Notes: a model not told the origin generated them from the sequence alone. A stretch of 64,000 bases of DNA from Porphyridium purpureum (GCA_008690995.1 VRMN01000003.1:1984001-2048000), one strand, 5' to 3'; shown: positions 20,061 to 62,686, counted from the first letter of the stretch. Made by a program: numbers and translations.

Positions 20061-22088
20061 ATGAATGGCACCCAGCTTGCGGCCGTCCATGTTGGGAACA
20101 CAAGCGTCCGTGCTCGGCCGCTGGAACCCAGGGACCATGAGCGGCACGTGCAGCAGCGGACGCTGCCGCGGCTAAGCGGTCTACGGCGCGGCGTTTGCCT
20201 CGAAGAAGACCCGGACGGGGGCATCGATGATTTGCTGGATATAGGACTCTTGGGCCAGCACGATGTTGGCACGGCGATATTGCACGACTTTTCGATCGAG
20301 CCAAACGTGAACTCATCGCAGTCATTTTTGCAGGATTTATGCCCTTCAAACCATCGGATGGCCGAGAGCTCCGCGTCTTCGTCTCAAAAGAACGTGCGAC
20401 GCGACCCGTGGTCATCACAGAGCTTTGAAATGGCGATCGACTCGTTGAGCGACGCCATGCAAAGCTCACTGAAGATGTGCGACGGCGTGTGGACCAGAAC
20501 CAACATTTGGTGTGACCCTCCGCTTGAACCTACCGCCGCGGCTCCTGTACCGCTCCAGATCCAGAGATCATCAATGCCCGGTGCGACCGCAACAGCAGGG
20601 GCCAACATCGAGTCGGCGTCTCCGAATGTGATGACGCTCAAGCTGATGGTACAATCACCGTGCGCTGATATTGCGTCAGGCTTACGCTTGATGCTTTGGA
20701 CTTCTGTTGGCATTCTCTGGGCGTCTCCCGGGCTCGGTAATGCATGCTTGGAGGTCAAAGTGGATGTTTCACGACTGGATGGTCCGATCGAGGTCTTTGC
20801 ACTTTGTGGGAGCGCCATGCTGGAGCATTTGAACACCGCCATTCTAGTGGCAGTGACAGCTCAGGGCGAGATTCTTCGCTATCAGCACACTCGTCCATCA
20901 CCGACCCTCCAGGAAGACGCGTACTCCTTGCTCCGTACCGATGCCAAATTTTTCGAGACGCCTTCAGTTGTGCCGGCCCTGTGTAATCCTGTGGATGCTT
21001 CTCCTGTCGCTGCGGTTCCAGAACCAGCGGCACTTCCTCCTGTATCTTCGGCCCAGGAAGCAAAGGTCTCATTCAAGCGAGCGCGTGCGCCGCGTGCGCC
21101 GCGTCCCCCGCCAGCCCCGCACCGAACCGCAAGTGCACCGGATCGTATCGCGGATCCCTCGACTTTAAAGAACGCAGAGCTGCATTCGGGCAGTAGCTCA
21201 CCTTTGGGCCCGCCACATAGTCTGCCAGTGCCGGTGTTGGCTTTAGACAAGCGCACGGACTTTCGCAGCAAGAGGCGCGGCGAATGGCGGACCGTTGCCG
21301 AAGTCAACGACTTCTGTGCGGCAGAGGGTGACTTGACGGGCATGCTGTGGCTGGACCACGAACACGACAACCACCACGACGCTTCTCAATTCAAGCAGGA
21401 GAGACTCCCCTCTCTCGGCCACGGCTGGTCCAGTCCCGCACGACCCAGGGCCAGCCCGTCCGGCGAGTGCTCAGAGACAACGACCTCGTCGCTTGCTACA
21501 AGTGTGCGAACTGGCGGCTTGTTTGGGACACCAAAGGACCAGGCCGGATGCGGCGGCCTTCACAAAAGCAGCAAGAGCAGGCTGCAGTCGCCTTACGAGT
21601 TCGGGGAGTCCGAGTCGTTTTTCAGCGCACCAGACTTGCGTTCGGCACCTTCACGAGAAGCGCTGGTAGGCAGCGCTATTTTGTCCGAGCCATCAACAAG
21701 CGTCGCGTCGGGATGCACGTACGTCACAGACGCATGGCTCGAACGCAAGGGCAGAATGACGCTTGCGCTGCTGCGCTACCGCCTGCAGGCAACGCACAAG
21801 TCCAAGTACATCAAGGTGATTACCAAGGATGACCTTCGCGGACTGCTGATGTTCTCGCGCGAGCTGATCGCCGAGGAGCTGAACATCTCCGTCACGCTTG
21901 TCAAGAAATTCTTCCGAGCCTGCGACATTGACACGTGGCCCTACCGCAGGGTGTACGTTATCCGCAGGCGGCTGCGCGAGTGCGAGCAGCAGCTTGCGGG
22001 GCCAGACGGAGCGCGCATGGCGCTTGAGATGGCACTTCTGACCGAAGAGTACAATCAAATTGAACGAGAAACTTTGCCATCTCAATAA
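20061..22088 (+). CDS. RWP-RK domain transcription factor (C-terminal domain)
   Basis: C-terminal ITKDDLRGLLMFSRELIAEELNISVTLVKKFFRACDIDTWPYRRV followed by a short coiled coil. Long disordered Ser/Pro-rich body. Start uncertain. Confidence 0.82.
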   Translation: MNGTQLAAVHVGNTSVRARPLEPRDHERHVQQRTLPRLSGLRRGVCLEEDPDGGIDDLLDIGLLGQHDVGTAILHDFSIEPNVNSSQSFLQDLCPSNHRMAESSASSSQKNVRRDPWSSQSFEMAIDSLSDAMQSSLKMCDGVWTRTNIWCDPPLEPTAAAPVPLQIQRSSMPGATATAGANIESASPNVMTLKLMVQSPCADIASGLRLMLWTSVGILWASPGLGNACLEVKVDVSRLDGPIEVFALCGSAMLEHLNTAILVAVTAQGEILRYQHTRPSPTLQEDAYSLLRTDAKFFETPSVVPALCNPVDASPVAAVPEPAALPPVSSAQEAKVSFKRARAPRAPRPPPAPHRTASAPDRIADPSTLKNAELHSGSSSPLGPPHSLPVPVLALDKRTDFRSKRRGEWRTVAEVNDFCAAEGDLTGMLWLDHEHDNHHDASQFKQERLPSLGHGWSSPARPRASPSGECSETTTSSLATSVRTGGLFGTPKDQAGCGGLHKSSKSRLQSPYEFGESESFFSAPDLRSAPSREALVGSAILSEPSTSVASGCTYVTDAWLERKGRMTLALLRYRLQATHKSKYIKVITKDDLRGLLMFSRELIAEELNISVTLVKKFFRACDIDTWPYRRVYVIRRRLRECEQQLAGPDGARMALEMALLTEEYNQIERETLPSQ

Positions 22089-22313: not shown

Positions 22314-25300
22314 TTAAACATAGTTCTCCAAGGATTTCTTCAGTTCTGCAAGCTTCAACTTGAGCTTTTCCGGTACGCCACCCAACTGCTCGTAGAACGC
22401 CTCGTAGCGCGGAATGTCCACGAGCCAGTTGTCGCGATCGACAGAGAGAAGCGCCTTCAGATCCTCTGGGCTAATCGACAGCCCACTCACGTCGAGCGCA
22501 TCAACGGGCGGCAAGTTGCCAATGGGTGTGGCCACCGCTGACGCTGTTCCTTCGATGCGCTCTACGATCCACTTCAGCAAACGGACATTCTCACCGAAAC
22601 CTGGCCACATAAAGCGGCCACTCGCGTCCTTACGGAAAAAGTTCACGTAAAAGATGCGCGGCGCGTGTTCGCCCAATTTGGCTCCCATCGACAGCCAGTG
22701 CTCAAAGTACTGCGTAACAGAGTAGCCAAAGAAGGGCAACATTGCCATGGGGTCAATACGGAGCGAACCCACCTTGCCCTCAGCAGCGGCAGTCTGTTCC
22801 GATGAGCACACACTGCCTGCAAAAACGCCGTGCACCCAATCGCTTAGCTCGTTGACCAGCGGAATGGTCGTCTCGCGGCGGCCGCCAAAAATAATGGCCG
22901 AGATGGGCACACCTTCGGGATTCTCCCAATCGGGGTCAATCACCGGACAGTTCCCTGCGGGAGCCGTGTAACGCGCGTTCGGGTGCGCAGCCTTACGACC
23001 ACAACCAGGCGTCCATTTCTGATACGTCCAATCTTCCAATTCGGCTGGCGGCTCCGTGCTCATACCCTCCCACCATACGTCGCCGTCCGGCGTCAGTCCA
23101 ACATTCGTGTAGATAGAGTCCGACTTGAGTGCTTCCATAACTGAGTGATTCGTCAGGTCGCTTGTACCAGGCGCAACACCAAAGAAGCCAGACTCGGGAT
23201 TGATTGCACGTAGGCGGCCATCCTTACCAATATGCATCCAAGCCAGGTCGTCCCCAACCGTGGAAACCGACCAGCCTGGGATCGTCGGAACCATGAGCGC
23301 AAAGTTTGTCTTTCCGCATGCACTCGGGAATGCAGCGGCGACGTAGTACTTTTTGCCCGCCGGGTTCGTGATACCGAGAATCAGACAGTGCTCCGCCAGC
23401 CAGCCTTCGCGTCTCCCCAACACGCTCGCCATACGCAGGCCGTAGCATTTTTTGGGCAACAGCGCGTTGCCGCCGTATCCAGAGCGCAAACTGATGACCT
23501 GCGGATTCTCGCCGTCCGGGAAGTGGCAAATGTACTTGGGGTCATCGCATGGCCATTTGGAATCCACATCATTCGGCTTCAAAGATTTGCAAACCGAGTG
23601 GAAGCATGGCAGCCAGAACTTACCCTGCATAGCGCGCAGCACGTTGAAACCGATGCGCGTCATAATCTTGAGATTTACCACCACGTACGGCGAATCCGTG
23701 ATCTCAACGCCAAAGCGTGCGTACGGCGAGTCAATTGGTCCGCACACAAATGGAATCACATACATCGTTCGCCCGCGCATGCATCCTTGCATAATTTCGT
23801 TTAGCTCCTTCTTCATGCCCTCTGGTTCGCGCCAGTTGTTTGTCGGACCGGCATCCTCCTGCTTTTCTGAGCAAATAAATGTGCGCGACTCTACGCGAGC
23901 CACATCTTTTGGATCTGAGCGCGCCAAGAACGAATTCGGTCGTTTCTTCGGGTTCAGTCGCACAAACGTGCCGGCCTCAACCAGGACATCACACATGAGC
24001 TGGTATTCTTCTTCCGATCCATCACACCAGTGCACGTGCTCTGGCTCGCACAGCGCCTTCATTTCCTTGACCCAGCCGATCAACTTGGCGTCGGTGCACG
24101 GTACCTGCTCAACGGCGGCAAAGTGCAGCCGCTGCTCGAGGCTTGTCAGCTCACGATGGATCTCCTCCGGCCAATGGGCTTCCAGCTTGGCGTGGAACTT
24201 TCGCACCTGCGGCAACTCGTCAAGCCATTGCTGCGCATCCACTTTGAGCAACTGCTCTAGCGCACCAGGTGCTAGCTCTAACCCACTGAGATCCAGGGCA
24301 CCGGGCGCCGGCAGAATACCGATCGGGGTCGATACGCCGCCCGTGCGCTGGTTCTCCACGCGCTGCACCACCCACTTCAGCACGCGGGCATTATCGCCAA
24401 AGCCTGGCCATAAGAATCTCCCGTTCTGTGGATCTTTCTGGAACCAGTTCACGTAGAAAATGCGCGGCATCTTCTTTTCATTGATGTCGGCCAGGCGCTT
24501 GCCCATCGCCAGCCAGTTGTCACGCATATAGTCGCCCATATTGTACCCACAGAAGGGCAGCATGGCATACGGGTCAAAACGAAGCTCACCCAGTTTGCCC
24601 TCCGCAGCGGCGGTCTGTTCTGACGCACACATGGCGCCCATGAATACACCATGCTGCCAGCTGAAGCTCTCAGTGACCAGCGGAATGGTGCTGCCGCGAC
24701 GTCCGCCGAACAGCACGGCCGAAACGGGCACGCCTTCAGGATTTTCCCAGTCCGGGTCGAGCACGGGGCAATTGATTGCTGGCACCGTGTATCGTGCGTT
24801 CGGATGGGCGGCAAGTCGCCCACAATCTGGTGTCCATTTCTGCCCTTGCCAATCTTCCAGTTCGGCTGGTGGCTCGGGTGTCATGCCCTCCCACCACACA
24901 TCACCGTCGGGCGTAAGTGCGCAATTGGTGAAAATCACGTTTTCGCCGAGGGCGGCCATAGCGCTGGGATTGGTAAAGCTGCTTGTTCCAGGCGCAACCC
25001 CGAAGAATCCACTCTCAGGATTCATCGCGCGCAGCGACCCGTCGGGTGCTGGGTGCATCCACGCAATGTCATCGCCGAGCGTGGTCACTTTCATGCCAGG
25101 AACGGTAGGCACGAGCATCGCCAAATTCGTCTTGCCACATTGGCTCGGCAACGCAGCAGTGATGTAACTCTTCTTTGAACCACTCATCTCCAGACCCAGA
25201 ATAAGCATGTGCTCGGCCATCCAGCCCTCGCGGCGGCCCATCTCGCTGGCAATGCGAAGCGCGAGGCATTTCTTACCGAGAAGCGCATTCCCACCTCCGC

Positions 25301-27824
25301 CACTACCAAAGCTCATAATTTCCGGACCGTCGGCTTCGTGCGGGAAATGGGAGATGTATTTGGTCTCGTTGCACGGCCACGCAACGTCCAGCTCAGCGGG
25401 CGCAAGAGGACGACCAACAGAATGCAAGCACTTGACAAACGATCCGTCCTTGCCTAGCATACGAAGCACGCGGAAGCCTACACGCGTCATGATGTGCATG
25501 TTGGCCACGACATACGGACTGTCAGTGATCTGCACGCCGACGCGCGAGTACGGCGAGTCAAGTGGGCCCATGGAAAAGGGAATAACAAACAGCGTGCGAC
25601 CTTGCATGGCGCCGTCAAATAGACCCTCCAAGATCTTGCGCATCTCAGCCGGGTCAAACCAGTTATTTGTCGGGCCAGCTTCCTCCAATGTCGTCGTGCA
25701 CACAAATGTGCGGCTTTCAACACGGGCGACATCGTTCGGGTGCGAACGCGCAAGGTACGAGTTGGGGCGCTTCTTTGGGTCAAGTCGCACGAATGTGCCT
25801 GTTTCAACGCAAATGTCGCACATGAGCTGATACTCTTCGCGCGATCCATCGCACCAAAAGACGTGCTCCGGTTTGCACAGAGACGTCATGCGGCGGACCC
25901 AGTCCGAGAGGCGCTTGTTGGTGGTCGGTGCATTGTCCCGCAGTGCGAAATGCAGTCGCAGCTCGAGCTCTACAAGCTCGTGGCGCAGAGCGGGTGGGAG
26001 AAATTCACCCAACTTGTCCTGGTGCGCTCGGATTTGCGGCAGCTCATCAAGCCATTGCTGCGGATTCACTAACAGCAGCTCTTGCATCTCTTGCTTGGTC
26101 ACCTTGAGCCCGTGCAGGTCTACTGCGCCCTCGGCTGGCACCACGCCGACGGGGGTGTGGCGTCCACGCGCCGAGCCGTCAAGGCGGCCGAGCATCCACT
26201 TGAGCACACGCGAGTTCTCGCCAAAGCCGGGCCACAAGAAGCGGCCAGAACCACCTGCATCTTTGCGGAACCAGTTGACGTAGAAAATCTGCGGTGCCTG
26301 ACCGCCTAGTCGCTCGCCCATATCGAGCCAGTGCTTTTCGTACTCACCGCAGTTGTACCCGATGAATGGCAACATCGCGAACGGGTCAATGCGGAGCGTG
26401 CCGGCCTTCCCTTCAGCGGCCGCGGTCTGCTCGGACGAGCACATGGAACCCATGAAGACGCCATGCTGCCAGCTGAACGCCTCCGTGACCAACGGCACCG
26501 TGGTGGCACGGCGGCCACCAAAGACAATGGCCGAGATCGGAACGCCCTTGGGGTCCTGCCAGCGCGGGTCCATCACGGGGCAATTGGCGGCCGGTGCCGT
26601 GTAGCGCGCGTTCGGATGCGCAGCTGGGCGCCCACAGTCGGGCGTCCATTTCTGGAACGTCCAATCCTCAAGCTCAGCTGGTGGTTCTGGCGTCATGCCA
26701 TCCCACCACACATCACCGTCGGGCGTCAAAGCAACGTTGGTAAAAATGCAGTGCTCGGTGAGCGCCGCCATCGCGCTCGGATTTGTAAAGCTGCTCGTAC
26801 CGGGCGCTACGCCAAAGAATCCGTTCTCCGGATTAATGGCGTACAGGCGATTGTCGTCCTTGTCCTGGCGCATCCAGGCAATATCGTCACCGACCGTCGT
26901 CACCTTGAGACCCGGAATCGTCGGCACGAGCATGGCCAGGTTGGTTTTGCCGCACGCGCTCGGGAATGCAGCCGCGATGTAATGAGTCTGATTCGTGGAG
27001 GTCTGCGTGAGGCCCAGAATCAAGCAGTGCTCCGCCATCCACCCTTCTTCCAGTCCCATTGTACTTGCGATGCGTAGTGCAAAGCACTTTTTCGACAACA
27101 GTGCGTTCCCTCCGTACGCGCTGCCGTACGACATAATCGAAGGATCCTCAGGAAAGTGGCAAATATACTTGTTCTTGTTGCATGGCCAGCGCACGTCCTT
27201 CTCGCCTGGCGCGAGCGGTTTGCCGACGGAATGCACACACGGCACAAAGTCCCGCTTCTTGCCGATGCGCTGCAGCACGGCGGTGCCGACGCGCGTCATG
27301 ATGTGCATGTTGACCACCACAAATGCGCTATCCGTCAGCTGTATGCCGCAGCGCGACAGCGGCGAGTCAATGGGACCCATGCAGAATGGAATGACATACA
27401 TGGTTCTGCCACGCATGCAACCTTTGTACAGTTCGTGCAGGGTCTGCTTCATCTCGTCCGGCTCGGCCCAGTTGTTTGTCGGTCCTGCGTCCTCCTCGTA
27501 CGTTGTGCAAATAAACGTGCGGCTTTCGACGCGCGCGACGTCACTGGGGTCGGAGCGGGCCAAGTAGCAGTCCTTGCGCTTTTTTTCGTTCAACTTGATC
27601 ATTGTGCCAGCCTCGACGAGCTCCGCGGTCAAGCGGCTCCACTCGTGCGCCGACCCATCGCAGATCACGACGCTCTGCGGCTCGCACAAGGTGGCGTACT
27701 TGACAATGAACTTTTGCAGATGCTTGTTGTCGAGCCAATACACTGGCGCGAGATCTGGCGGCCCCTTACCGGCGGCGACCACGGCAGTGGCGGCGGCCAC
27801 CTCCTCCTTTGCGGCCGTGTCCAT
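22314..27824 (-). CDS. PCK: Triple-domain GTP-dependent phosphoenolpyruvate carboxykinase (three tandem PEPCK units, 1836 aa)
   Basis: DVARVESRTF, GGNALLxKKC, AEH, PSxCGKTN, GDDxAW, HPNARY, SEQTAAAEGK and WPGFG(E/D)N each occur three times in one uninterrupted frame. First ATG (MDTAAKEE) at 27824. Confidence 0.95.
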   Translation of the reverse strand: MDTAAKEEVAAATAVVAAGKGPPDLAPVYWLDNKHLQKFIVKYATLCEPQSVVICDGSAHEWSRLTAELVEAGTMIKLNEKKRKDCYLARSDPSDVARVESRTFICTTYEEDAGPTNNWAEPDEMKQTLHELYKGCMRGRTMYVIPFCMGPIDSPLSRCGIQLTDSAFVVVNMHIMTRVGTAVLQRIGKKRDFVPCVHSVGKPLAPGEKDVRWPCNKNKYICHFPEDPSIMSYGSAYGGNALLSKKCFALRIASTMGLEEGWMAEHCLILGLTQTSTNQTHYIAAAFPSACGKTNLAMLVPTIPGLKVTTVGDDIAWMRQDKDDNRLYAINPENGFFGVAPGTSSFTNPSAMAALTEHCIFTNVALTPDGDVWWDGMTPEPPAELEDWTFQKWTPDCGRPAAHPNARYTAPAANCPVMDPRWQDPKGVPISAIVFGGRRATTVPLVTEAFSWQHGVFMGSMCSSEQTAAAEGKAGTLRIDPFAMLPFIGYNCGEYEKHWLDMGERLGGQAPQIFYVNWFRKDAGGSGRFLWPGFGENSRVLKWMLGRLDGSARGRHTPVGVVPAEGAVDLHGLKVTKQEMQELLLVNPQQWLDELPQIRAHQDKLGEFLPPALRHELVELELRLHFALRDNAPTTNKRLSDWVRRMTSLCKPEHVFWCDGSREEYQLMCDICVETGTFVRLDPKKRPNSYLARSHPNDVARVESRTFVCTTTLEEAGPTNNWFDPAEMRKILEGLFDGAMQGRTLFVIPFSMGPLDSPYSRVGVQITDSPYVVANMHIMTRVGFRVLRMLGKDGSFVKCLHSVGRPLAPAELDVAWPCNETKYISHFPHEADGPEIMSFGSGGGGNALLGKKCLALRIASEMGRREGWMAEHMLILGLEMSGSKKSYITAALPSQCGKTNLAMLVPTVPGMKVTTLGDDIAWMHPAPDGSLRAMNPESGFFGVAPGTSSFTNPSAMAALGENVIFTNCALTPDGDVWWEGMTPEPPAELEDWQGQKWTPDCGRLAAHPNARYTVPAINCPVLDPDWENPEGVPVSAVLFGGRRGSTIPLVTESFSWQHGVFMGAMCASEQTAAAEGKLGELRFDPYAMLPFCGYNMGDYMRDNWLAMGKRLADINEKKMPRIFYVNWFQKDPQNGRFLWPGFGDNARVLKWVVQRVENQRTGGVSTPIGILPAPGALDLSGLELAPGALEQLLKVDAQQWLDELPQVRKFHAKLEAHWPEEIHRELTSLEQRLHFAAVEQVPCTDAKLIGWVKEMKALCEPEHVHWCDGSEEEYQLMCDVLVEAGTFVRLNPKKRPNSFLARSDPKDVARVESRTFICSEKQEDAGPTNNWREPEGMKKELNEIMQGCMRGRTMYVIPFVCGPIDSPYARFGVEITDSPYVVVNLKIMTRIGFNVLRAMQGKFWLPCFHSVCKSLKPNDVDSKWPCDDPKYICHFPDGENPQVISLRSGYGGNALLPKKCYGLRMASVLGRREGWLAEHCLILGITNPAGKKYYVAAAFPSACGKTNFALMVPTIPGWSVSTVGDDLAWMHIGKDGRLRAINPESGFFGVAPGTSDLTNHSVMEALKSDSIYTNVGLTPDGDVWWEGMSTEPPAELEDWTYQKWTPGCGRKAAHPNARYTAPAGNCPVIDPDWENPEGVPISAIIFGGRRETTIPLVNELSDWVHGVFAGSVCSSEQTAAAEGKVGSLRIDPMAMLPFFGYSVTQYFEHWLSMGAKLGEHAPRIFYVNFFRKDASGRFMWPGFGENVRLLKWIVERIEGTASAVATPIGNLPPVDALDVSGLSISPEDLKALLSVDRDNWLVDIPRYEAFYEQLGGVPEKLKLKLAELKKSLENYV

Positions 27825-28609: not shown

Positions 28610-29482
28610 TTAATATCCGTAGCTCGACGCGCGCTTGGCCGCGGCCATCGCCGGGTACGTGTTCGCGTAGCCCTCCTCAAAGTGTGTGGACGAGAACAGG
28701 TCGCGGCCGTACTTGCTCTGCGCGTAGCGCTCGGCAGCAAACTGCGACGCAGACTTCTGCGCCGAGCGGAACGCGACCGCGAGCGCGGCGACGCGCGCCT
28801 GCTCGGCCTGGCCCTTCGCGTTGCCCTCCACGCACGAGCTCTTGTACACGCCGCTCGCGGTGGTTCCGCGCATCTTGTTCACCTTGTCCACCGACGCCGC
28901 CAGGAACTCCTCCTCAATGCTTTCCGGCACCGCGTAGCGTTGGCATGCGCGAGTGACTTCCGTGCTTGCCATCAGTGCGGCGGCGGCGAGCTTCGGGTAC
29001 TTGATGTACTGCTTCTCCTGGTGGTCGTTCTGAGCCAGGATCAGCGCAAGGCGGCGGTTCTCGTACATGGCGCCGGTCTTCTCGGCCGCCGAGCGCTGGT
29101 TCATGCGGAATGCCGCAGACAGGGCCATGGCGCGCTTCTCGTGGGCCATTCCCTTGGCCGATCCCTCCATGCACTGGATGCCGTACACGCCGTACGGAAT
29201 CGCCGCCGCCTTGCCCTCCATGGTCACCGACTTGGCAAAAAACATGTCTGCCTTGTCCAGGGCCTTGTTGACGTTTTTCTTGGTGACCTTGGCGGAAAAT
29301 CCGCTCACCTTGGGTACGCGCTGGAAGCGGCGCATGTTGACAGACGACACGGCGCCCGTCACCATGTGCACCTGGCTGTTGCTGCTGCTGCTGCGACGCG
29401 CCGTCTTGTCGCATACCGCTGTCGCCCCAAACTTGGCCACGGCCGCCTTGCCCATAAACCCACTTACAAACGCCGTCTCCAT
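28610..29482 (-). CDS. Phycoerythrin gamma-type chromophorylated phycobilisome linker, plastid-targeted
   Basis: Transit peptide METAFVSGF...; two internal repeats GVYGIQCMEGSAKG..R.MAL..AFR..QRS and GVYKSSCVEGNAKG..R.AAL..AFR..QKS typical of gamma subunits. Confidence 0.9.
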   Translation of the reverse strand: METAFVSGFMGKAAVAKFGATAVCDKTARRSSSSNSQVHMVTGAVSSVNMRRFQRVPKVSGFSAKVTKKNVNKALDKADMFFAKSVTMEGKAAAIPYGVYGIQCMEGSAKGMAHEKRAMALSAAFRMNQRSAAEKTGAMYENRRLALILAQNDHQEKQYIKYPKLAAAALMASTEVTRACQRYAVPESIEEEFLAASVDKVNKMRGTTASGVYKSSCVEGNAKGQAEQARVAALAVAFRSAQKSASQFAAERYAQSKYGRDLFSSTHFEEGYANTYPAMAAAKRASSYGY

Positions 29483-30028
29483 CTTATCCCAATCCAAATC
29501 GATCGTACCTCCACTTTGCTCCCTCACACACACAACACCAAGCTCGTCGTCCGTTGCTATTGTTGACTCGACAGCTCTTCTATCGTCTCTCTCCCTTGCT
29601 CGTCTTATCGAAGCCTTTGTTCCTTCTCCTCCTTAAACTGTGGTATTCGAAGTGCCTTTTCCTATCAAACTAAGCCGCGACAATAAGACCGCAACCCAAA
29701 AACATCCTCCCTCCTCCCTGCTTATGCTGAACAACCGCACTTGACAGGGAAATCAAGAAAAAACCGCCATCCGCGTCAAATCATCAAACTAGCGCGATCC
29801 AGTATGACCTCGCGCACTCCGCTCGACGAGATCTCTCGCACTGTACCTACGCGCGCACGCCAGGGTACAGTGAGTACAGGACGTCAGTATTAATTAATAT
29901 TGTGTTAAACTGTGATGTTTAATGTGTTTGGTGGAGCTCGAGTGGGAGGCAAAATGGTCGTGGAGGTTGGGTGGTGTAAAAGTGGTTGATGGGGCAGTGG
30001 GGAAACGGAGGCAGCGACAGCGACAGCG

Positions 30029-32008
30029 ATGGGGATAGAAGCAGATGTTGCGCACGCTGGAGCTGCGGCGGCAGCGCCGAAGAAGGCATGGGATACGCGA
30101 GTGATGTTTCGGGAGCTCATGATGCATGATGTCGAGCTGCGTGAGTATGTGTTGAACCACGTGTTTGGCGAGGAGCTGTTCAAGCTCGCGCCGCAGTACG
30201 GAATGACCGTACGGCAAGAGCGAGATCTGACCATGGCGCGATGGGCGCGTATGCGTGAGCTGAAAGTGTACGATAATGTGCTTGCCGTCGGAGTGGATGA
30301 CCCGAGCGGCAGGCGAGCCGCCGTCCAAAAGTACGATTGTCTGTCCGAGTGCGTCGGCCTTCTTGACCACTCTTTGGAGATCAAGACGGGTGTGCACTAC
30401 GGGCTGTTTGGTTCAACCATTGCACGGCTTGGCAGCAAGCACCAGCGCGAGCTCTACTTGCCCAAAGTGCAGACGTGCGAGATGCTCGGCTGCTTTGCGC
30501 TCACAGAGCTCGGCCATGGCTCCAATGCGCGCGGCATCGAGACTACCGCCACGTACGCACCAGAGACGGACTCCATTGTGCTCCACACGCCAACTGAGAC
30601 CGCACAAAAGTACTGGATTGGCGGCGCAGCAGAGGACGCGTGCTGGACAACGGCAATGGCACAATTGTATGTGAACGGCGAGTGCCATGGCGTGCATGCA
30701 TTTATTGTGCGGCTGCGGAACGACACGGACAAGCAGCTATGCCCAGGCGTCTGGATCGAAGATTGTGGCCACAAATGCGGGCTCAACGGCGTGGATAACG
30801 GGCGCATCTGGTTTGACAACGTGCACATCCCGCGCTCGCAAATGTTGAGTGGCGTGGCAAGCATTGATGATTCAGGCAAGTACCAATCTGCGATCAAGAA
30901 CCCAGATCAGCGCTTTGCTGTGCAGCTGGGTGCGCTGAGCGGCGGCCGAATCTCGATTGCAGTCAACTCCACACGGAACGCAGCGCTGGCGTTGACCACG
31001 GCAATCCGATATGCGCATTCGCGGCGGGCGTTTGGGCCCGACGGAGCCGCCGAGGTTGCGCTAATGCACTATAGGAGCCACCAGCAGCGCCTCTTGCCAT
31101 ACCTGGCACGCACGTACGCCATGTCCTTTGCCGTCAACGAACTTAAACGTATGTGGTGGGACAACTGCCAGCTGCTCGGTACCCCGGTGAGCAAAGACGT
31201 GCACTTTGTGTCTAGCCTATTCAAGGCTCTGATGACATGGAACATGCGCGACTCTATGCAGGAATGCCGCGAGTCATGTGGTGGCCAGGGATACGCAAGT
31301 ATAAACCGCATTGGGCCGGTGAAGAACGATCGTGATGTGATGATGACGTTTGAAGGTGACAACTCGGTGCTTTTACAGCGCGCGGGTAAAATGGTGATGG
31401 ACGACTATGCACGTACGGTGAAAAGTCGAAAGCGGTCTGGCTGCTTCAAGTGGCTGTCCGAGGAGTTCGACACTAAAGTGAATAGTCCGGCTCGGCGCAC
31501 GGGCTCCGAAGATCTCTCGCAAGATGAGCAGGATTTAGAGCGGCTACTTGAAACAGCGTTGCACAGACGCCTGTATGCGTTGCTCGAAAGCCTCGCCCAA
31601 GAGGTTCCAAAGCTTCAACGCGAGCTCGCGGGCGACGCGTTTGAGGTCGCCAACATGATCTCCAGCGACGCCTCGGAGCTCGGCTACGCGTTTGCGGAGC
31701 TGCTGATTTGGCAGTGGTTTCGTCGAGACGTGGCACGCATTTCAAACGCGTATCCGGACATGGCGCGCGTGCTGCAGATGCTGTCGTCGCTTTACGCGCT
31801 AGACACGGTCGATAGATCACCGTCCTTCCTCCGCCTGTCCTGCATCTCACAAGCCGAGGCCAGCGTTGTTCGACACGCTAAACGTCGCCGATGTGCAGAG
31901 CTCGCACCGCACAGCATGGACCTCGTCAACTCGTTTGGAATACCAGACCATTTGCTCGGGCCTATAGCTGGCGACTGGGAGCTCCAAAACCGACGGAGCA
32001 AGCTGTGA
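30029..32008 (+). CDS. ACX: Peroxisomal acyl-CoA oxidase
   Basis: GCFALTELGHGSN, AQKYWIG, KCGLNGVDNG, CRESCGGQGY, TFEGDNSVLLQ. C-terminal PTS1 SKL. Confidence 0.96.
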   Translation: MGIEADVAHAGAAAAAPKKAWDTRVMFRELMMHDVELREYVLNHVFGEELFKLAPQYGMTVRQERDLTMARWARMRELKVYDNVLAVGVDDPSGRRAAVQKYDCLSECVGLLDHSLEIKTGVHYGLFGSTIARLGSKHQRELYLPKVQTCEMLGCFALTELGHGSNARGIETTATYAPETDSIVLHTPTETAQKYWIGGAAEDACWTTAMAQLYVNGECHGVHAFIVRLRNDTDKQLCPGVWIEDCGHKCGLNGVDNGRIWFDNVHIPRSQMLSGVASIDDSGKYQSAIKNPDQRFAVQLGALSGGRISIAVNSTRNAALALTTAIRYAHSRRAFGPDGAAEVALMHYRSHQQRLLPYLARTYAMSFAVNELKRMWWDNCQLLGTPVSKDVHFVSSLFKALMTWNMRDSMQECRESCGGQGYASINRIGPVKNDRDVMMTFEGDNSVLLQRAGKMVMDDYARTVKSRKRSGCFKWLSEEFDTKVNSPARRTGSEDLSQDEQDLERLLETALHRRLYALLESLAQEVPKLQRELAGDAFEVANMISSDASELGYAFAELLIWQWFRRDVARISNAYPDMARVLQMLSSLYALDTVDRSPSFLRLSCISQAEASVVRHAKRRRCAELAPHSMDLVNSFGIPDHLLGPIAGDWELQNRRSKL

Positions 32009-32407
32009 GACCAATTTCAGCCACCAATATGATCGTGCTCATGACACGGAGAGACCATGTTCCTAACACACTTGATGCGCTCCAGCACCAGACGTGGAAT
32101 TCAGCCTGAAGCGATTAGTCTGTGGCGCTTCATAGTCTGATGCTGACAAGTTAAAAAGGGCCTTTCCGTGGCCCGCCAGTCTCAAAGTAGGACCAGAGGC
32201 AAAGAGCGCTCTGCTCATGCTGCAGTAGGTTCCGCAATTTACGCTTATTGCGAAAGCCGTCATTGTCTGTGAAGCTAAACTTCAACGCAATCAAAAGTTC
32301 AAAATCTAGCAAATGATGTCACCTTGCTGTAGCTGTAGACTTTCCGCGCTTCCGAAAGTCAATGCTCGTAAGAGAGTTGGTCCTGATACTGCAGACCAAG
32401 AATCTCT

Positions 32408-33570
32408 AGGTCATATCAACGTCGAGAAAAATGTCGTTTGCTCCTTTCCTATCGCGAACCATCACTTCTCCGACTTTGCACTGCCAAAATCTACTTGAGA
32501 TGGCTTGAGCAAGTTCAATTCTTCCCGATAAAGTCAACATCAACGACGGTAATCTTGCAGTCATACTGGCGACATCGGAAAACAAATCGCTGATAGAACC
32601 ATTTGCCAGCGTATGTTAGCATTTCCCGGTTCGCCTTTGACCTGACCTTTCCGTCGGCTTTTCGAATCATCTGGCGGACTTGCCGCTCAGATTCCGATCG
32701 GATCACGAGCATGCGTAAGATGGCTTGCCAGCTACCTTTGCTTTTCGCCCATGAGATTCAAAGCCTGTCCCATAGCCGGCAAATAGCTCGCCTCAGGTTT
32801 GGCCTTTAACATTTGCTCAATTGTCTTGTTGAAGACTAACAATCATGTCCCGAACACAAGCGCAATACCCAATGCATATCTGCAACGCCAACTTGAAGCG
32901 CAGAACCTTGGCCAACATCAAATTACGTCTGCAAGATTCTTGTGCCAGGAGCGAAAGAACAAACCGCCGTCAATTAGGCACACTCGTGGATTCGGATTTA
33001 GTTTCCAATTCAGCCTCTCCTTCCTTCATATTGCCGTGATCTGCAAGCAGAGTTTGCTGGTCTTGGTATTCGCCAGCGAAACCAGGCACACCGCCAGAAG
33101 AGCTATCAGAAGAAGAGCACGCACGTCGTCAATCTCTTGCGGAATACTTAGAGGCTAACGAAAGTCCATGCTCGCCATAAGCAACAACAGACTGAAATAC
33201 CACCATACCTTTTTCCAGGTGTATTCGAAAGTCCAGAGTGATTGCGCAAGGTTCTTTCGGTCATTTTCACGAGTATCCGTGGGTGCTATGAGAAACTGCG
33301 GGCTCTTCTCTTCACCAGCTGCGTCATCTCCATCGATGTTCTGATCACAAAGACATTTCGTGCAGCAATCTGTCATCCGGTTTCAGAGTTCGCTTTCGCC
33401 TCATCTTCGCAATGCTCTGCCGAACCAGTCACGGTGCGATTGCACGCCATTTTACGTCCGTCGCTCGGTTCCCACGCTTTTTTTTTGAAGCAGATAATCG
33501 ACTTCCTCATTTTCTTGAGGACGCTTGATCTTGAATGTCATCCATGGAGTACCGACGTCTTTTGTCATTG
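32408..33570 (-). pseudogene. tnpB: TnpB/Fanzor2-like RNA-guided nuclease relic
   Basis: Fragments in order: TFKIK...GTERRT*N; VCSFAPGTRILQT*FD..G.ALQVGVADMHWVLRLC (RuvC-I like); LRRAICRLWDRL; VRQMIRKADGKVRSKANREMLTY...FYQRFVFRCRQYDCKITVVDV; WQCKVGEVMVRDRKGANDIFL (RuvC-III like). Confidence 0.8.
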
Positions 33571-33599
33571 TCTGCTTGCCGCCTCTGTCCGTGGAATCT

Positions 33600-34195
33600 T
33601 CACCCGTCTGCTTCGAGTAAATTTGACACCGCGGAGCTGCTCGCATTCCCATCGTCTTGTTCACCTAGTAAAACAAACCGCAAGCGAATCTTCTGCGAGT
33701 TCCTAAGTACCATCGTCTGCGGCGTCTTCGTAGCGCGAAACCACGTCGAGTGCCGTGCTCAGTTTTCGGCACCTACAGTCAAGTGAAATAATCTACAATC
33801 AAGCAAGTCTGTCACGGTAGGTGACCGCAAATGCTTTGACGTACCCTTCTTCGACTACGTTCAAACGGAACAATAGACCTTTGCACTTGAGGTTCAGACC
33901 TGAGCCGATGCCGCGCATAAACTTCTTGTGCGTCGGACAACGATGTTTTAGGCATGCTGATCTACCTGTCGAGGTCACCTACCTCACGTCGCCTTTCGGA
34001 TTGAACACGCGCGCGAATGATGTCGAGCCGGCGCTGCATGTTCTCTGCTTCTTCAATTGCTAAGGGTTCGAACTGGACACAACTGTCGTTGGTATATGAA
34101 CAATGGACTTCCGCGGATTCGGAAAGTGGATGCATAGCTCAGCCTGCCCGCTTTCGCCCACCTGAGCAATGCGGCTCTTGACACCCCATGCGTCT
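33600..34195 (-). pseudogene. tnpA: IS607-type serine recombinase (TnpA) relic with N-terminal HTH
   Basis: HGVSRAALLRWAKAGRL (34138-34190), DIIRARVQS..GDLDR*I (33960-34024), GIGSGLNLKCKGL (~33875-33912), VTYRDRLA (~33802-33825), ELAEDSLAV (33676-33702), GMRAA. Confidence 0.82.
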
Positions 34196-34449
34196 TGGAA
34201 GCCGTACGTGGTGGAATACGGACGCCACCGACAATCGTTGTTGCGTAGTTTGCGAAGGAAAACCAACGTCAGCGCTTTCTTCAACTGGTTGAGCGCGATC
34301 CAGAGCGAGCAACTAGGTTTCTTGTCCGGTGTACTTTTCCCCGGACGCTCCAAGATTTAGCTGAGTTGGAGGGGAAGCGAGAGAGAGAGAGAGAGAGAGG
34401 TGAAGTCTGGATCTGTGACCGCAAATGGGGCACGGTGCGCTGTGTCACG

Positions 34450-37400
34450 ATGGCAGAGGATGGGCCGCACGATCGAGGAGAAAGAGCGATGCCGCAGCGG
34501 GACAACACCAGTGTGGAAAACAGCCGTGTCAGCTCCATCCTTTACAATAGCGAGGCATCAGCCGCACTCGCGCGGCCGTCGCCGGTGTCGCTGTCGCCGA
34601 ACTCTGTGGATTCGGCCGAGCGAGAGGGTGGTGAGTGTGCGGAACTCGTGGAGAGCTTGAGTGCACTTGAAAGCAGTGGGTTTGACAGTTCACAAAAGCC
34701 GCTGACGGCGCTGCCGAGCACGGTCGTCGACGAACAGTTTGTGACGTCGATCGGGCTCGTGTCGAAGGAGGATGGACTGGATGCGTTAGGGAGCGACGAG
34801 GCCGACGCGGACGCAGGACCAGAGCTCCTTCTGAGCAAGCGACTTGCATTCAGTCTCGAGGACGCGGCAAATGCGGGATCCCAGGAAGCCGCAGAAGCTC
34901 TGGCCGAGCTGGCGGCCTCTTCACATCATCCCGAGTCGGGTACATTCAGTATTGCGTCCCAATTGTCATCAGCTGCGGCGGCATATTGGGCGCAGAATCA
35001 GCAGATTCAAGAGGAGCATCAGAAACAGCAGCATGAGCAGGAACATCGGCAGCAACAACAACAGGAGGACAGAAACCGTGGCGGAAAGGAGCAGTCGGTA
35101 CCTCCACAGGGCCAGCCAATCTCTTCACGCAAATCGCCTGCCTTAAATGCGGCGCCCGTGGCGCGGCCAAGCCCCAGGAGTGAGGCGACGAGGACGTTGC
35201 CATCACCTCAGCTGCAAGCTTTGGTGCGGAGGGCGAGCGAGCTTACTCGAGACAGCGGCTCTGTGGCCAACTCAGTGGCCAAGCACCACCGTGAATTCTC
35301 GGATATAGAGGAAATTCTGTTCGAGAACCTCTCGAGCGAGGCGATCCAGTCACGGTCTCTAGAGGAAGTGCTGGCGGACGCTGATTCGCTAGAACAGGTG
35401 CTGCTGTCACACCTTCACGACGTGCTAGCCAACTTGAACGCGGTGCGAGGTAAGAAAAGATTGCTGCGAAACCGGCGCGTATCGGCAAACTCGAAAGCAT
35501 TTGGGAATGAAAAAGACAAGAATCGCCGTAACGGACCTCTCGGCAATGACGCCTTCGAGTGGTCTTCTGCACAGGAGCAGCAAAATCCGAAACGTATTAT
35601 TTCAATATCAGCGTGCCTGCCGTCCATTGAAGAGCGGAAGAACCCGTTGTTCTCGCTACACATGCCCGCGGCGGGATTTCCTCCCAATGCAATGGGTCTT
35701 GTAGAGGAAGCAACGGACTTGAACTTTGTATGGGTAGGGCGTTATCTTTGCGACGATCCGGACCAGTACCCACCGGGACGGAATTGGCGCCGTGTGATGA
35801 GCGATCACAAGGACACGCACACACATGCGCACCCTTTACATTCATCCCATTTGTACACGGCGCACGGCTCCGCAGGCGGCGACTACGGCTCTTCAACAGT
35901 TTCTACGAGCTCGGCAATACTCAGCGGGTCAATAGCCGTACGTATTCCGGAAGAGCTTATCGAGAGCTTTTCAAACTTTTGCAACAATACCCTGTGGCGG
36001 CTGCTGCACTATGACTACGACTCGCTGGGTGACGAGAAGGAGGAGGTCGAGTGGGAGGCGTACAAAGCCGTTAATATGCGCTTCGCCGAAGTCGTGGCAG
36101 AGTTTTATGAGGAGGGCGACCTAATCTGGGTGCATGATTACCATTTGCTGCTTTTGCCCGCGATGCTCAGGAAGCGTCTTTGGAAAGCAAAGATTGGCGC
36201 GTTCTTGTATGTGCCTTTCCCTTCGCAAGAAATCTTTAGAATTTTGCCACAGCGCGTCGAAGTCTTGCGGGGCATCCTGGGCGCAGATCTGGTTGGATTT
36301 TACACGTACGCCTACTCGAAGCAGTTTGTTGCGTCGTGTTTCAGGTTGCTGGGGCTGGAAGGGACACCCAAGGGCATTGAGACAGACGAGCCAGGCAATC
36401 GCACGTGCGAGCTGGGTATCTATCCGGGTGGGAGCAATGTAAACGCTCTGCGACGGCTTCGACAGAGTCCGATTGTGCATGCACGCGTCGACGAGTTCCA
36501 GCGCTCTTTCGCTGGTATGCAGATTATCGTGGGCATTGACTACATGGATGATCTATTTGCCGGCTTGTTACACAAGCTGCTAGCGTTTGGTGAGTTCCTA
36601 CGTGAAAACCCGAGCTTTTTGGGTAACGTAGTGCTGGTGCAGGTCGGGCTCGAACTCGATGACGTCTCTAACGAATCGCATGGCCCGTTTTTGAATTCAC
36701 TGGGCATTGCGCACTCGTCAGTCCAACACCTTTCGACTCTTGTGAATGAGCACGTTGGCCGCATCAACGCCAAGTACGGAACTTTGACCTACTCGCCCGT
36801 GCACTTTGTCCGCTCGCGACCAAATACAGTGGAGCTTGTGAGCCTAATGGCTGCGGGACACGTGTGTATCATGTCGTGTGTGAGAGATGGTATGCGGCTA
36901 CTACCGCACGACTGGACAGTGTGCCAGCACGGTGGGAACATGGGTCCACTCATTCTGTCAAACTTCTCGGGCTCGTCGCAATCCTTTGCGCTGGCTGTGC
37001 ACGTGAACCCTTGGGACACGACGGCCGTCGCCACTGCGTACCTTGACTGCTTGAAAATGAGCCCAGAGGAAAAGCGCATGCGCGACGACGCGGCATACCG
37101 CTTTGTCTCAACACACACTGCACAGTTGTGGGGAACAAACTTTCTCGAGGATCTTGCATCAGTGCAAGTGAATCAGCGCTGGACGGGCCCGCTACCGGCA
37201 ATGCAAGTGCCAAGCATGCGCGACGCGTTTGCCAGCTCTCAAAAGTACCGCATGCTGATGTTTCGACTAGAGGGTGCACTCATGTCGCACCAGAACGTCG
37301 TGCAGCTCGCAGCACCGTCATCGTCTGTGCTGCAGCTGCTCAGCACGCTTCTTGACGACACAAGAAACCTGGTCTTTGTGCTCACCTGGCGTGACCGTCG

Positions 37401-38877
37401 TATCGCATCTAGATGGTTTCGACGACTGCTCCTATACCCGAACTTTGGTCTGATATCTGAGGACGGTTGCTTTGTTCGCTGGCCAGCGGCCAGCGCGGTG
37501 CCTGACGGTCAGCCAGAGCATGTGGCCGAGGACATGATTAGTACACAAATTGCAGATGAGGACACGATTGAACGCATGCTGGAGGACGCGCTTCGGGCTG
37601 AGCAGCGCGTGCCGGAAAGAAACCAGCAGGACTGGAACGAGATCGGCGATGGCGCCCAAACGATGACAAGGAGGGGCAGTGACACTCTTGTAGGAGGCGC
37701 GAATGGGTCGGAGAATGCGAGCAGCATTCGCTCGGCGGATGTCTTTGCCGGGGACGTAGAGAATGTGGAAAACTCGAGGAGACTTTTGGGCAAATGGGAA
37801 TCGTTTGTCCAAGGCATTGCGCTGCAGGAGCGTGTACCGATCACAGACTTGACCATAGTCGAGGGCTCATCGCCGGCTCAATGGGGTACTCACGCGAGCA
37901 TGTACAGCCACGTTCCGTCCCCGCAATTTACCATCAACACACGGAGCCCGCATGACTCGCGACCGAGAAGTCCGAATTCGCTCTCTGGATCTGAGGTGAC
38001 TTACGCTGATGGCGGTGTCGACGATGCATTGCCTGCGGCTTCTGCGCGCTTTGCAGCAGCGTCAGACGCACTTGAGAATGCAGCAGATTTAGGGACCGCA
38101 AATCGCGCCTCCGTCCCGGTACCCTTGCCAATGCCCGTGCCAGTGCCTGTACCTGAGCGCTCGCGCAGTCGCAATGTTCATGGCGGGGGAAGCAGCACTG
38201 ATTTAAGCCGTGCAAACAGTGCCAGTGGGCCTCGTAGCTTTTTAAGTGCAAGTGGTATGTCAGTTTCAGACCGTTCGCCTTTCCGTCGCTTTCTGGTCGA
38301 CTCGGAGCATGCACCGGACGTTTTGGAAGAGTTGGTGGTGTCTGATACACTTGAGTGGAAGGAGTCTGTGATTTCCGTGATGAAGCACTTTTCGGAGCGC
38401 ACGCCGGGCGCGTTTCTCGAGGAAGGCGAAGCGATTGTGACTTGGCACTACCATGACGCAGACGCTGACTTTGGCAAGTGGCAGTCGCGCGATTTACATC
38501 GCCACCTTGAAGCATTCATGCTGCGCAGCGTCATCTCAAGCGACCAGGTCGCCAAGTGGATCCGCGTGTGCCCTGTTGGCGCAGACCGCGTGTCATCTGT
38601 TGAGCGCGTTTGCCAGGTGATGTGCCACCTGTGTGACTACTTTCTGTACGTCGGCTGCGACGGGACGGATAATCATGTGTTCGAGACGATCCGCAGGAAC
38701 AACGGTGAGCTCCTACAGAAAGCGTCGTTTGTCGGTGAAGTGGAGACTGTCTTTGTGGGCTCGCGAGGGCTAAACTCATCCGCGCGGTATTGTGTTGACT
38801 CACCGGCGGCATTTCTCGATGCTTTGCGCGTCATCGTGGGCATTGCGCCTCCCAATCTTCCCAGTGGTCGATCGTGA
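34450..38877 (+). CDS. Trehalose-6-phosphate synthase/phosphatase-like fusion (GT20 + HAD), apparently degenerate active sites
   Basis: FCNNTLWRLLHY, WEAYKAVN.RFA, DLIWVHDYHL, PFPSQEIFR, LGADLVGF, VNPWD, FSERTPGAFLEEGE..WHY. Start MAEDG at 34450. Confidence 0.92.
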   Translation: MAEDGPHDRGERAMPQRDNTSVENSRVSSILYNSEASAALARPSPVSLSPNSVDSAEREGGECAELVESLSALESSGFDSSQKPLTALPSTVVDEQFVTSIGLVSKEDGLDALGSDEADADAGPELLLSKRLAFSLEDAANAGSQEAAEALAELAASSHHPESGTFSIASQLSSAAAAYWAQNQQIQEEHQKQQHEQEHRQQQQQEDRNRGGKEQSVPPQGQPISSRKSPALNAAPVARPSPRSEATRTLPSPQLQALVRRASELTRDSGSVANSVAKHHREFSDIEEILFENLSSEAIQSRSLEEVLADADSLEQVLLSHLHDVLANLNAVRGKKRLLRNRRVSANSKAFGNEKDKNRRNGPLGNDAFEWSSAQEQQNPKRIISISACLPSIEERKNPLFSLHMPAAGFPPNAMGLVEEATDLNFVWVGRYLCDDPDQYPPGRNWRRVMSDHKDTHTHAHPLHSSHLYTAHGSAGGDYGSSTVSTSSAILSGSIAVRIPEELIESFSNFCNNTLWRLLHYDYDSLGDEKEEVEWEAYKAVNMRFAEVVAEFYEEGDLIWVHDYHLLLLPAMLRKRLWKAKIGAFLYVPFPSQEIFRILPQRVEVLRGILGADLVGFYTYAYSKQFVASCFRLLGLEGTPKGIETDEPGNRTCELGIYPGGSNVNALRRLRQSPIVHARVDEFQRSFAGMQIIVGIDYMDDLFAGLLHKLLAFGEFLRENPSFLGNVVLVQVGLELDDVSNESHGPFLNSLGIAHSSVQHLSTLVNEHVGRINAKYGTLTYSPVHFVRSRPNTVELVSLMAAGHVCIMSCVRDGMRLLPHDWTVCQHGGNMGPLILSNFSGSSQSFALAVHVNPWDTTAVATAYLDCLKMSPEEKRMRDDAAYRFVSTHTAQLWGTNFLEDLASVQVNQRWTGPLPAMQVPSMRDAFASSQKYRMLMFRLEGALMSHQNVVQLAAPSSSVLQLLSTLLDDTRNLVFVLTWRDRRIASRWFRRLLLYPNFGLISEDGCFVRWPAASAVPDGQPEHVAEDMISTQIADEDTIERMLEDALRAEQRVPERNQQDWNEIGDGAQTMTRRGSDTLVGGANGSENASSIRSADVFAGDVENVENSRRLLGKWESFVQGIALQERVPITDLTIVEGSSPAQWGTHASMYSHVPSPQFTINTRSPHDSRPRSPNSLSGSEVTYADGGVDDALPAASARFAAASDALENAADLGTANRASVPVPLPMPVPVPVPERSRSRNVHGGGSSTDLSRANSASGPRSFLSASGMSVSDRSPFRRFLVDSEHAPDVLEELVVSDTLEWKESVISVMKHFSERTPGAFLEEGEAIVTWHYHDADADFGKWQSRDLHRHLEAFMLRSVISSDQVAKWIRVCPVGADRVSSVERVCQVMCHLCDYFLYVGCDGTDNHVFETIRRNNGELLQKASFVGEVETVFVGSRGLNSSARYCVDSPAAFLDALRVIVGIAPPNLPSGRS

Positions 38878-39824: not shown

Positions 39825-40507
39825 GTCTGCACCGAACCGCGCGGGGCGTTATCCCTTACTCCCTTTCTTTCTCTCTCCCCTATCCAACCTCCCGCAACAG
39901 CCTCCTCCTCTTCCCTTCGCACACCATCTTGTTCTACTCCCCGACTAAACATGGCGCTCCCGCTTTCTCAGTTGCACACGACGGCCGCGGACGATAGAGG
40001 TACAGCAAACCCGCACACCCGAACTCCTGCAAAACACGCTCGTTTATAAAAGGTACAGTGATGGTGATAGCGCGTATGTGTGTTTGTGTGTTTTTGCGTA
40101 GGAGTGCTTGGGCGTAAAATGAAAGGATGGAGCAAGAAACCCTGGAGCTAACCGATGGGGACAAGTCAGAATGAGGGTTTTCGACGCTGCTGTGCGCTCA
40201 CGCGCGGAAGTACAGTTGGCCGAATGGTAAGGGAGGTACAGGCAGTGAACGAGCTGCTGTGCGGGCTGCGCTCCGGGAGATTCCCAGCAACAGCAAAGAC
40301 GGTTTCATAGGAGCGCAGCGTTTGCGTAGTAAAGAAGGGCGCGTTAGTAGAGAGCGATGTGGATGAGTGAAGGTGCGCAGTGAGAGGTGTAGGGGGGAGG
40401 GAGAGAGAGAAGGGACGGCACGAAGAGAAAGGGGCAAGGCTGTGAACGTGCGTGGCTCATGTGCGGTAGGTATCGGTGCGTGTAGGAGAGAGGAACATAC
40501 AGGGGAT

Positions 40508-61900: not shown

Positions 61901-62686
61901 AAACGCAATGTCCAAGAGCAAGTAACTTGGCAGAGATGGTCACTATCATGCCATGTGACGTCACAAAGCGCAACCGCGAGTCTGGGTGCCTAAAGAAGAA
62001 TGTCCGGCAAGCATTGGGCACGACATTCGGGCGTGCATTTGTGCACAAGGTCCCACATGCGATTGGGCACACCTTCACAAGCTTAGCGGGGGTGACAGTA
62101 CGGATGACCCCGTCATGGTCCGAGCTGAACGTGTGCCATTCGCTCTGTCGAGCACTCCGAACAGGCGACAGTGATCTCGTCACGCACATTTGCGAGTGCT
62201 GCATCGTAGCTGCTTGCTACAACAATGCCCATGATCCTCGTTTCTATCGGCACTCGAATAAGATTCTTTGATTGTGCGCAATCACATGCGCACTTGCCTC
62301 CATGGCACGCTCTACGACGTCTGGAGCACGACCGCCGTTTGTGCAAGCGACCGCGGATGCAAGACCCACTTGCGTCTTCAGCTCGAGCATGCGCGACACG
62401 CCACCTCATCGGCTCCTTCACTTTTGGCGCGAAACGCATGGCCAATGAAACGATAATTACTAATAAAATGAGATTGTTCTAATAGAAGAAAGGAACTTGG
62501 CGCCTTCGAGCGCGCGCGCGCGGGTTGGGAGAAGCCAACTTGGTTGAGGGAGAGCGTTTGAGGGGCGCTGGCATGGTTAAGAGAGCGTCCGTTTGCCGGG
62601 CTTGCACGCGACATTGCTTTGGCGTTTCTTGGTTGGGAATCGCAGCGAACTAAGTGGGTTTTCGAAGGTTTAGTAAGGGCGGTGGT

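Follow-up and report, generated by a model that had tools for sequence, protein, structure and literature searches.

The stretch of DNA analysed here (hereafter the window) comprises 64,000 nt of Porphyridium purpureum (VRMN01000003.1:1984001-2048000) and is gene-dense. One of its genes, at 28613-29482, encodes linker LR8 of PDB entry 6KGX with 290 of 290 residues identical, 6KGX being the Porphyridium purpureum phycobilisome (PMC9694638), and the remaining genes with Pfam matches resemble ordinary host genes, none of them viral. Two such genes, both on the plus strand and both identified by Pfam, encode an acyl-CoA oxidase (ACX, 30029..32008) and a trehalose-phosphate synthase/phosphatase (TPS, 34450..38877). 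The gap between them has a GC content of 0.49, compared with 0.56 for the window, and holds no ATG-started ORF reaching 150 residues, as anticipated by the original prediction, which had described fragmentary ORFs only. Within this gap, on the minus strand, lies about 2 kb of a decayed IS607/Fanzor2-type element whose detectable homology extends over 32275..34218, as delimited by a DNA profile, a 3' alignment and its GC content (0.49). ACX flanks its right-end side and TPS, which is divergent from it, its left-end side, with an (AG)n run at 34367-34407 between the element and TPS.

Elsewhere in the window, a minus-strand ORF of 1,836 residues (22314-27824) consists of three GTP-type PEP carboxykinase units in tandem, every one of which has both the N- and the C-terminal Pfam domain, and its internal repeats appear as contig joints. 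A 3.8-kb stretch at 58901-62763 (GC 0.53) has no long ATG-started ORF past 59356 and gave no match to the IS607 profiles. The plus strand also carries a hydroxyphenylpyruvate-dioxygenase/glyoxalase-fold gene (10933-12666) and an RWP-RK transcription factor gene (20061-22088).

The HTH and serine-recombinase motifs from which the element had been predicted all recur when the minus strand is translated, in the order given and distributed over three frames. The frameshift-aware profile search set beforehand as a check yielded a score of 225 for TnpA and 144 for the RuvC and zinc-finger part of the nuclease, the two parts following each other collinearly, compared with at most 34 in the controls, which were 25 shuffles (maxima of 34 for TnpA and 31 for RuvC), the plus strand, and 24 other stretches of the window (maxima of 32 and 34, respectively). 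A DNA profile built from four intact relatives matches at 34218-33397 (E 7e-67) and 32964-32424 (E 2e-30), and these matches are separated by 433 bases compared with 419 model positions; as both parts are matched at the expected spacing, little seems to have been deleted. For comparison we fetched 79 and 21 viral, 80 metagenomic and 59 prokaryotic loci, and among 2,859 ORFs from 241 loci, 209 match the ACX-TPS gap and none matches elsewhere in the window (E <1e-4). The feature is a real relic of the known IS607/Fanzor2 family, collinear and apparently near full length, with both genes on the minus strand.

Its right end lies at about 32267-32275, the 3' alignment with four intact elements stopping at 32275. 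The left end and target site were looked for and not found, the end lying upstream of 34218; the upstream regions of the relatives do not align. Among the 25 inverted and 20 direct repeats listed, none joins the two ends of the relic, the left one being undefined. A promoter scan with a bacterial model was empty, and searches of PDB and plasmids with a 74-residue piece of the nuclease gave nothing significant. A first viral scan with the same piece returned two loci, which were rejected as chance matches in unrelated genes.

The TnpA pseudogene occupies 33635..34217 (minus strand) and shows the order typical of IS607, an N-terminal HTH (about 34217-34140) followed by a serine-recombinase domain; intact relatives carry HTH_17 and Resolvase. 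In frameshift-aware alignment 74 of 195 residues are identical to the TnpA of the intact element at locus L083, with five stops and three frameshifts. NCBIfam model NF033518 (IS607 transposase) matches one of the six frames (E 7.3e-7) at 28.9 bits, compared with a curated cut-off of 110, and the top three PDB matches of the TnpA piece, with E values of 7e-6 to 3e-4, are all serine recombinases of the IS607 type. Nine plasmid records carrying the annotation IS607 transposase are matched by the same piece, as are 47 proteins out of 1.84 billion, of which one (P0014, a repeat protein) was spurious and was discarded. At the recombinase nucleophile the codon at 34003-34001 reads Q, just as predicted, and since the active-site serine is needed for IS607 transposition (PMC6188088), we file the element as a relic of the family and not as a working member.

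The nuclease gene lies on the same strand as TnpA, as in IS607 elements. Its RuvC and zinc-finger part (32424..32964, minus strand) was recovered by both frameshift-aware and DNA profiles, with 70 of 179 residues identical and again five stops and three frameshifts. RuvC-I reads APG (32952) where the closest relatives have DPG, and the position of the RuvC-II glutamate (32538), which is E in 24 of 24 intact relatives, reads V; the RD of RuvC-III (32453) is retained, so that two of the three RuvC residues are gone. A frameshift and a gap disrupt the zinc finger, and the RD following it is retained. The opening strand and helix of the TnpB core (33452..33562, minus strand) are matched by the DNA profile and weakly at the protein level, and the middle of the nuclease (REC/WED, about 33400-32970) gives no significant alignment; in this test 7 of 100 shuffles reach an equal score.

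Beyond the nuclease, alignment to intact relatives and folding point to the remnant of a right-end guide-RNA scaffold at 32275..32400 (minus strand). Predicted scaffolds of about 110-130 bases, with z about -5, were found in relatives (L083:2236-2375, L086:2118-2245, L162:5305-5428), and the elements of L083, L085 and L162 look intact. The region of the relic has a z-score of 0.05, versus -4.9 to -5.7 in three intact relatives, and 103 of 200 shuffles fold as well as it does, versus 0 of 200 for each of the three. Its last stems resemble those of the relatives, and the closing helix is lost. Five intact relatives terminate in GAGTAGGCG, rather than GG, and in the three that were folded this end pairs with an upstream GCCTAC as the closing helix (GCCTAC/GTAGGC). 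The relic aligns up to the bases preceding GAGTAGGCG and then diverges; the terminal 9-mer of the relatives is no more frequent in the window than chance predicts and is absent from the end of the relic. At 32266-32284 (minus strand), an inverted copy of 5 bases of the preceding sequence stands where the terminal bases would be expected, forming a small hairpin that may be due to chance. Rfam gave one match on the relic, below the family threshold. With the nucleophile, two RuvC residues and the guide-RNA fold all lost, both genes and the RNA are dead, which bears out the earlier statement that this copy is inactive; that the element is a dead relic of the IS607/Fanzor2 family we consider extremely likely.

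Eight of the 24 listed sequencing runs were mapped, one of which, X8, is marked as a possible source of the window. The relic is present in all eight, and their contigs contain no empty site (no joint across the relic). The gaps without contig cover in RNA-type runs, at 29560-30000 and about 39890-40420, carry no evidential weight. The original prediction had further supposed that the family was once active in this lineage and that intact copies may exist elsewhere in the genome. Neither expectation has found support so far: a single copy was seen, the DNA profile finding no second one in the window and the contigs of the eight runs showing none at 80% or 85% likeness. The relic could be the one survivor of a family that once multiplied in the alga, with diverged or intact copies elsewhere, as it is a near-full-length element with no viral genes at its flanks, as after TnpA-driven insertion, and copies less than 80-85% alike would escape read mapping. 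In addition to the missing second copy, however, the best 120 of 708 nuclease homologues include no red-algal name and no megabase contig like that of the window genes, most having no name at all, and we regard past multiplication as rather unlikely.

The closest relatives of the relic were sought both with and without profiles. In a profile-free tblastn, 185 of 271 RuvC queries match and the best 30 score 70-101 bits; the top ranks are occupied by environmental proteins and by loci L083-L086. In FastTree phylogenies of both genes the relic groups with L083, L085 and an element from a giant-virus bin (L162/L003) with a support of 99, on long branches (1.16 and 1.27) that in the TnpA tree join another long branch, and with a read-through of the relic that came from the profiles of the same clade; FastTree was the sole method. 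This close clade accounts for 13 of 132 TnpA rows and 63 of 195 RuvC rows (one short row was left out of the RuvC tree), and the placement is, within the limits of a FastTree long branch, in a DPG clade with IS607 partners. The profile of the relatives finds its best PDB match in the mimivirus Fanzor2 9B0L (E 8e-75), which is also nearest to the model of the L083 nuclease in a fold search (E 3e-21, about 21% identity).

L162 is the sole close relative with a known setting, most of the others lying on short metagenome contigs. It adjoins two ankyrin genes, and its bin includes an NCLDV capsid gene together with four nuclease matches; this is the only giant-virus bin in which the close clade was found over three productive scans. 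The suggestion that a giant virus delivered the element is plausible, since the bin of the nearest relative of known setting also contains an NCLDV capsid gene, and it stops short of proof; entry by this route seems to us slightly the better bet. The same relic could also have been acquired directly from a prokaryote, for example from a plasmid in the algal nucleus, and not via a virus. P. purpureum maintains bacterial plasmids as nuclear episomes (PMC6110788), DPG-type IS607 elements that share the nested frame described below are found in bacterial genomes, and two close nucleases bear prokaryotic labels (an archaeal MAG and a Paceibacterota MAG). The best of 41 RuvC queries from GTDB loci, however, reaches 38 bits compared with the 70-101 of the environmental and viral clade, in a GTDB scan that was based on a single peptide pattern and could have overlooked bacterial elements nearer to the relic, and the three GTDB rows readable at their starts have an ATG-started TnpA and a deeper nuclease start, unlike the clade of the relic. 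Direct acquisition from a prokaryote appears unlikely on these grounds.

Many DPG-type IS607 copies per genome occur in Poribacteria (L186-L233), with up to seven loci per chromosome record; these elements would form a bacterial pro-Fanzor family outside Cyanobacteria usable for mapping ends. Two Fanzor2-type proteins, P0163 and P0195, come from a transcriptome labelled Pharyngomonas kirbyi, and P0163 is 38% identical to L083.

A dead element may also be put to new use, here as a non-coding transcript or regulatory spacer, divergent from the TPS promoter or forming a long 3' tail of ACX. The 2 kb have persisted in a gene-dense window, and the contigs of X8, X12, X13, X15 and X20, from five studies, cover the relic and stop at 34267-34295, where the DNA run X14 continues; a single contig (30001-34294) takes in both ACX and the relic, and the (AG)n run begins 75 bases beyond the stops near 34290. 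These stops, just upstream of TnpA, are a weak hint of a possible transcript boundary, RNA being on record for X13 only among the five and the contigs giving neither strand nor ends. Against reuse, the contig of X20 carries 23 differences and one gap in 2,931 bases over the relic, compared with 18/3,440, 2/960 and 14/5,483 over three host genes, and this greater density in the relic fits neutral drift; the guide-RNA fold is gone, and the Rfam match is below threshold. Reuse is thus improbable, and a relic without present function very probable. Contamination, misassembly or chance motifs would accord with the null results of Pfam in six of six read-through frames (stops as X) and of a word-index homologue search with the decayed nuclease in its correct frame, but are ruled out by profile scores far above the controls, by the presence of the relic in all the runs, and by the X14 DNA contig, which runs through both flanks and the relic (29500-35134) and carries differences of its own.

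The explanation that we hold to be well supported is that of a single broken copy of an IS607/Fanzor2 transposon, which probably entered horizontally, most likely by means of a giant virus, and has probably decayed without function. IS607 TnpA proteins act by serine recombination over a 2-base core, with no duplication (PMC6188088), and IS607 nucleases loaded with the right-end RNA cut empty sites, which restores the element (PMC13565253). By analogy, excision and insertion of the living element would have been the work of TnpA, through serine recombination that duplicates no target bases, and the nuclease, loaded with the right-end RNA, would have cut empty sites so that the element was restored. 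Judging from the relatives, one transcript may have given both proteins from nested frames, with a weak non-AUG codon as the putative start of TnpA (CTG in all four close relatives in which the region is intact) and the first AUG within the HTH, in the +1 frame, as the putative start of the nuclease. The site at which the element landed is some 200 bases upstream of TPS, from which it points away, and there it decayed.

The nesting of the two frames departs from the original prediction, in which a TnpB-like gene immediately followed TnpA: the two genes do share a strand, but a tandem layout does not hold, as the intact relatives nest the TnpB frame over TnpA, the nuclease ORF spanning almost all of TnpA in the +1 frame. 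Nested elements of this kind include L083:428-2350, L085:84-2198, L162:3448-5370 and most DPG-type loci among L003-L241.

We compared the openness of the frames over up to 110 codons from the TnpA serine with synonymous shuffles, using 90 rows (241 loci, of which 174 have both genes, 154 of these a serine motif, 93 remaining without near-duplicates and 90 with enough clean codons). Owing to the shared ancestry of these rows, the counts do not represent independent events. The +1 frame stays open through the recombinase core in 61 of 67 DPG rows versus 0.18 expected, with 9 stops observed versus 381 expected, and the +2 frame is open in one of the 67 (474 stops observed, 532 expected). One of the six closed DPG rows, L176, is actually of DLG type. 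The +1 frame is open in 2 of 13 rows of canonical types and in 7 of 10 unclassified ones. Third-position differences in three pairs are 0.39-0.47 in the overlap versus 0.60-0.71 in RuvC. Two Fanzor2 elements (L242:3893-5560 and L250:3953 onward) have 7 and 13 stops in the TnpA frame; their nuclease ORFs retain the nested +1 piece (E 4e-9 and 1e-9) despite these stops. Among nuclease-selected loci the nested piece was found in 16 of 31 DPG ORFs, many of the 16 overlapping the loci from which the profile was built, and in 0 of 32 others. Nesting also occurs in bacterial genomes and therefore predates eukaryotes.

In the relic itself, a remnant of the nested +1 frame, corresponding to the N-terminal extension of Fanzor2 with its HSTWF motif, is matched by profile A3 at 33672..33932 (minus strand, E 8.5e-10), a match that DNA homology already entails and that does not independently prove coding. 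The +1 frame has an ATG at 34187..34189 (minus strand), where the His and Gly of the HTH meet. It has the position of the first nuclease-frame ATG in L083, L085 and L162, and to judge from these relatives is likely to be the old Fanzor2 start. Shortly ahead of the HTH, all four of L083, L085, L162 and L086 carry a CTG but lack an in-frame ATG, their nuclease ATG being located where Tyr and Gly of the HTH adjoin; L085 additionally has an upstream TTG-started frame. In several other viral loci, the TnpA and nuclease ATG codons are merely 4-13 bases apart. The combination of a non-AUG TnpA start with a nested nuclease ATG close behind it suggests leaky scanning, as far as sequence features can indicate it.

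The long alignment of the relatives to 9B0L begins at residue 75, and in it the nested NSW motif stands opposite Asn82-Ser83, residues that contact the guide RNA (PMC11832414). The nested piece alone, when compared with PDB, does not match 9B0L, so that homology of the two N-terminal extensions rests on the long alignment and is unproven; in the model of the L083 nuclease most of the N-terminal extension is at low confidence.

ORFs of IS607 elements often overlap (PMC6188088, PMC3673617, PMC9956272), and we found no account of near-complete nesting or overprinting in the accessible text of the Fanzor and IS607 literature, including the Yoon preprint, PMC10691335 and PMC10432273. We put forward only tentatively, and as somewhat short of an even chance, the combined proposal that the relic is the first IS607-type Fanzor2 seen in a red alga, that throughout the pro-Fanzor/Fanzor2 IS607 clade the N-terminal extension of the nuclease arose by overprinting TnpA, and that nested CUG and AUG starts give both proteins from one capped mRNA.

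Comparable elements are known from other hosts. IS607 copies in eukaryotes, many of them broken, have been described in amoebozoans, fungi and stramenopiles (PMC3673617), and Fanzor2 with a recombinase is known from Acanthamoeba and giant viruses (PMC3627910). Like the relic, the IS607EU elements (ACa-1 and ACa-2 of Acanthamoeba and the Ectocarpus copy; PMC3627910, PMC3673617, PMC13565253) combine an HTH TnpA and a Fanzor2 on one strand in a eukaryotic nucleus, and breakage by stops and frameshifts is frequent in the 80 sequences of PMC3673617. By comparison of descriptions, the relic differs in being dead in both genes and in its host, red algae not being among the four phyla given in the accessible text of PMC3673617. 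The relatives share with the mimivirus Fanzor2 (ApmFz2, 9B0L; PMC11832414, PMC10530073) the DPG of RuvC-I, a shifted RuvC-II glutamate and an N-terminal extension, and differ from it in the low identity and unmatched nested piece noted above. Bacterial pro-Fanzor IS607 TnpBs (PMC10711439 and preprint) are alike in DPG, shifted glutamate, serine-recombinase partner and nested +1 frame, but the environmental and viral clade is much closer to the relic than they are. In red algae, CMe-1 of Cyanidioschyzon merolae (PMC3627910) is likewise a TnpB-family nuclease in a nuclear genome; it has about 150 copies, and as described there no Fanzor2 mark and no transposase, whereas the relic is of Fanzor2 type, has a recombinase and was seen once.

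Fanzors of Rhodophyta are mentioned without species in the accessible text of PMC10530073, and unclassified Fanzor elements are given for Bangiophyceae (10.1101/2025.02.11.637652). Among open-access papers, outside Repbase and ISfinder, we found no report of an IS607-type Fanzor2 in red algae, though a table giving accessions alone could conceal one, and no paper combining Porphyridium and IS607. Table S5 of PMC10711439 includes two rows from Porphyridium; these resemble TFIIH p44-type and PEX2-type zinc-finger proteins and are apparently pattern false positives. No convincing Porphyridium Fanzor was found in the supplements of PMC10432273 and PMC10711439. Red algae are thus probably a new host group for IS607-type Fanzor2.

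What the relic adds is mainly this host record, a prokaryote-type IS607/Fanzor2 element having reached the nucleus of a red alga, likely via a giant virus. Pfam is blind to it, and protein-based Fanzor censuses will therefore miss such fossils. The larger gain lies in its relatives, as the intact recombinase-nuclease pairs with compact predicted guide RNAs in L083, L085 and L162 are candidates for assays. Nuclease lengths range from 353 to 900 among the best 120 homologues, and gene callers often cut the proteins short, which matters for cloning them as editing tools. The nested frame bears on the origin of the Fanzor2 N-terminal domain and on the true starts of Fanzor2 genes and, if the overprinting reading is true, nested starts on one mRNA would ease the move of such elements from bacteria into viruses and eukaryotes.
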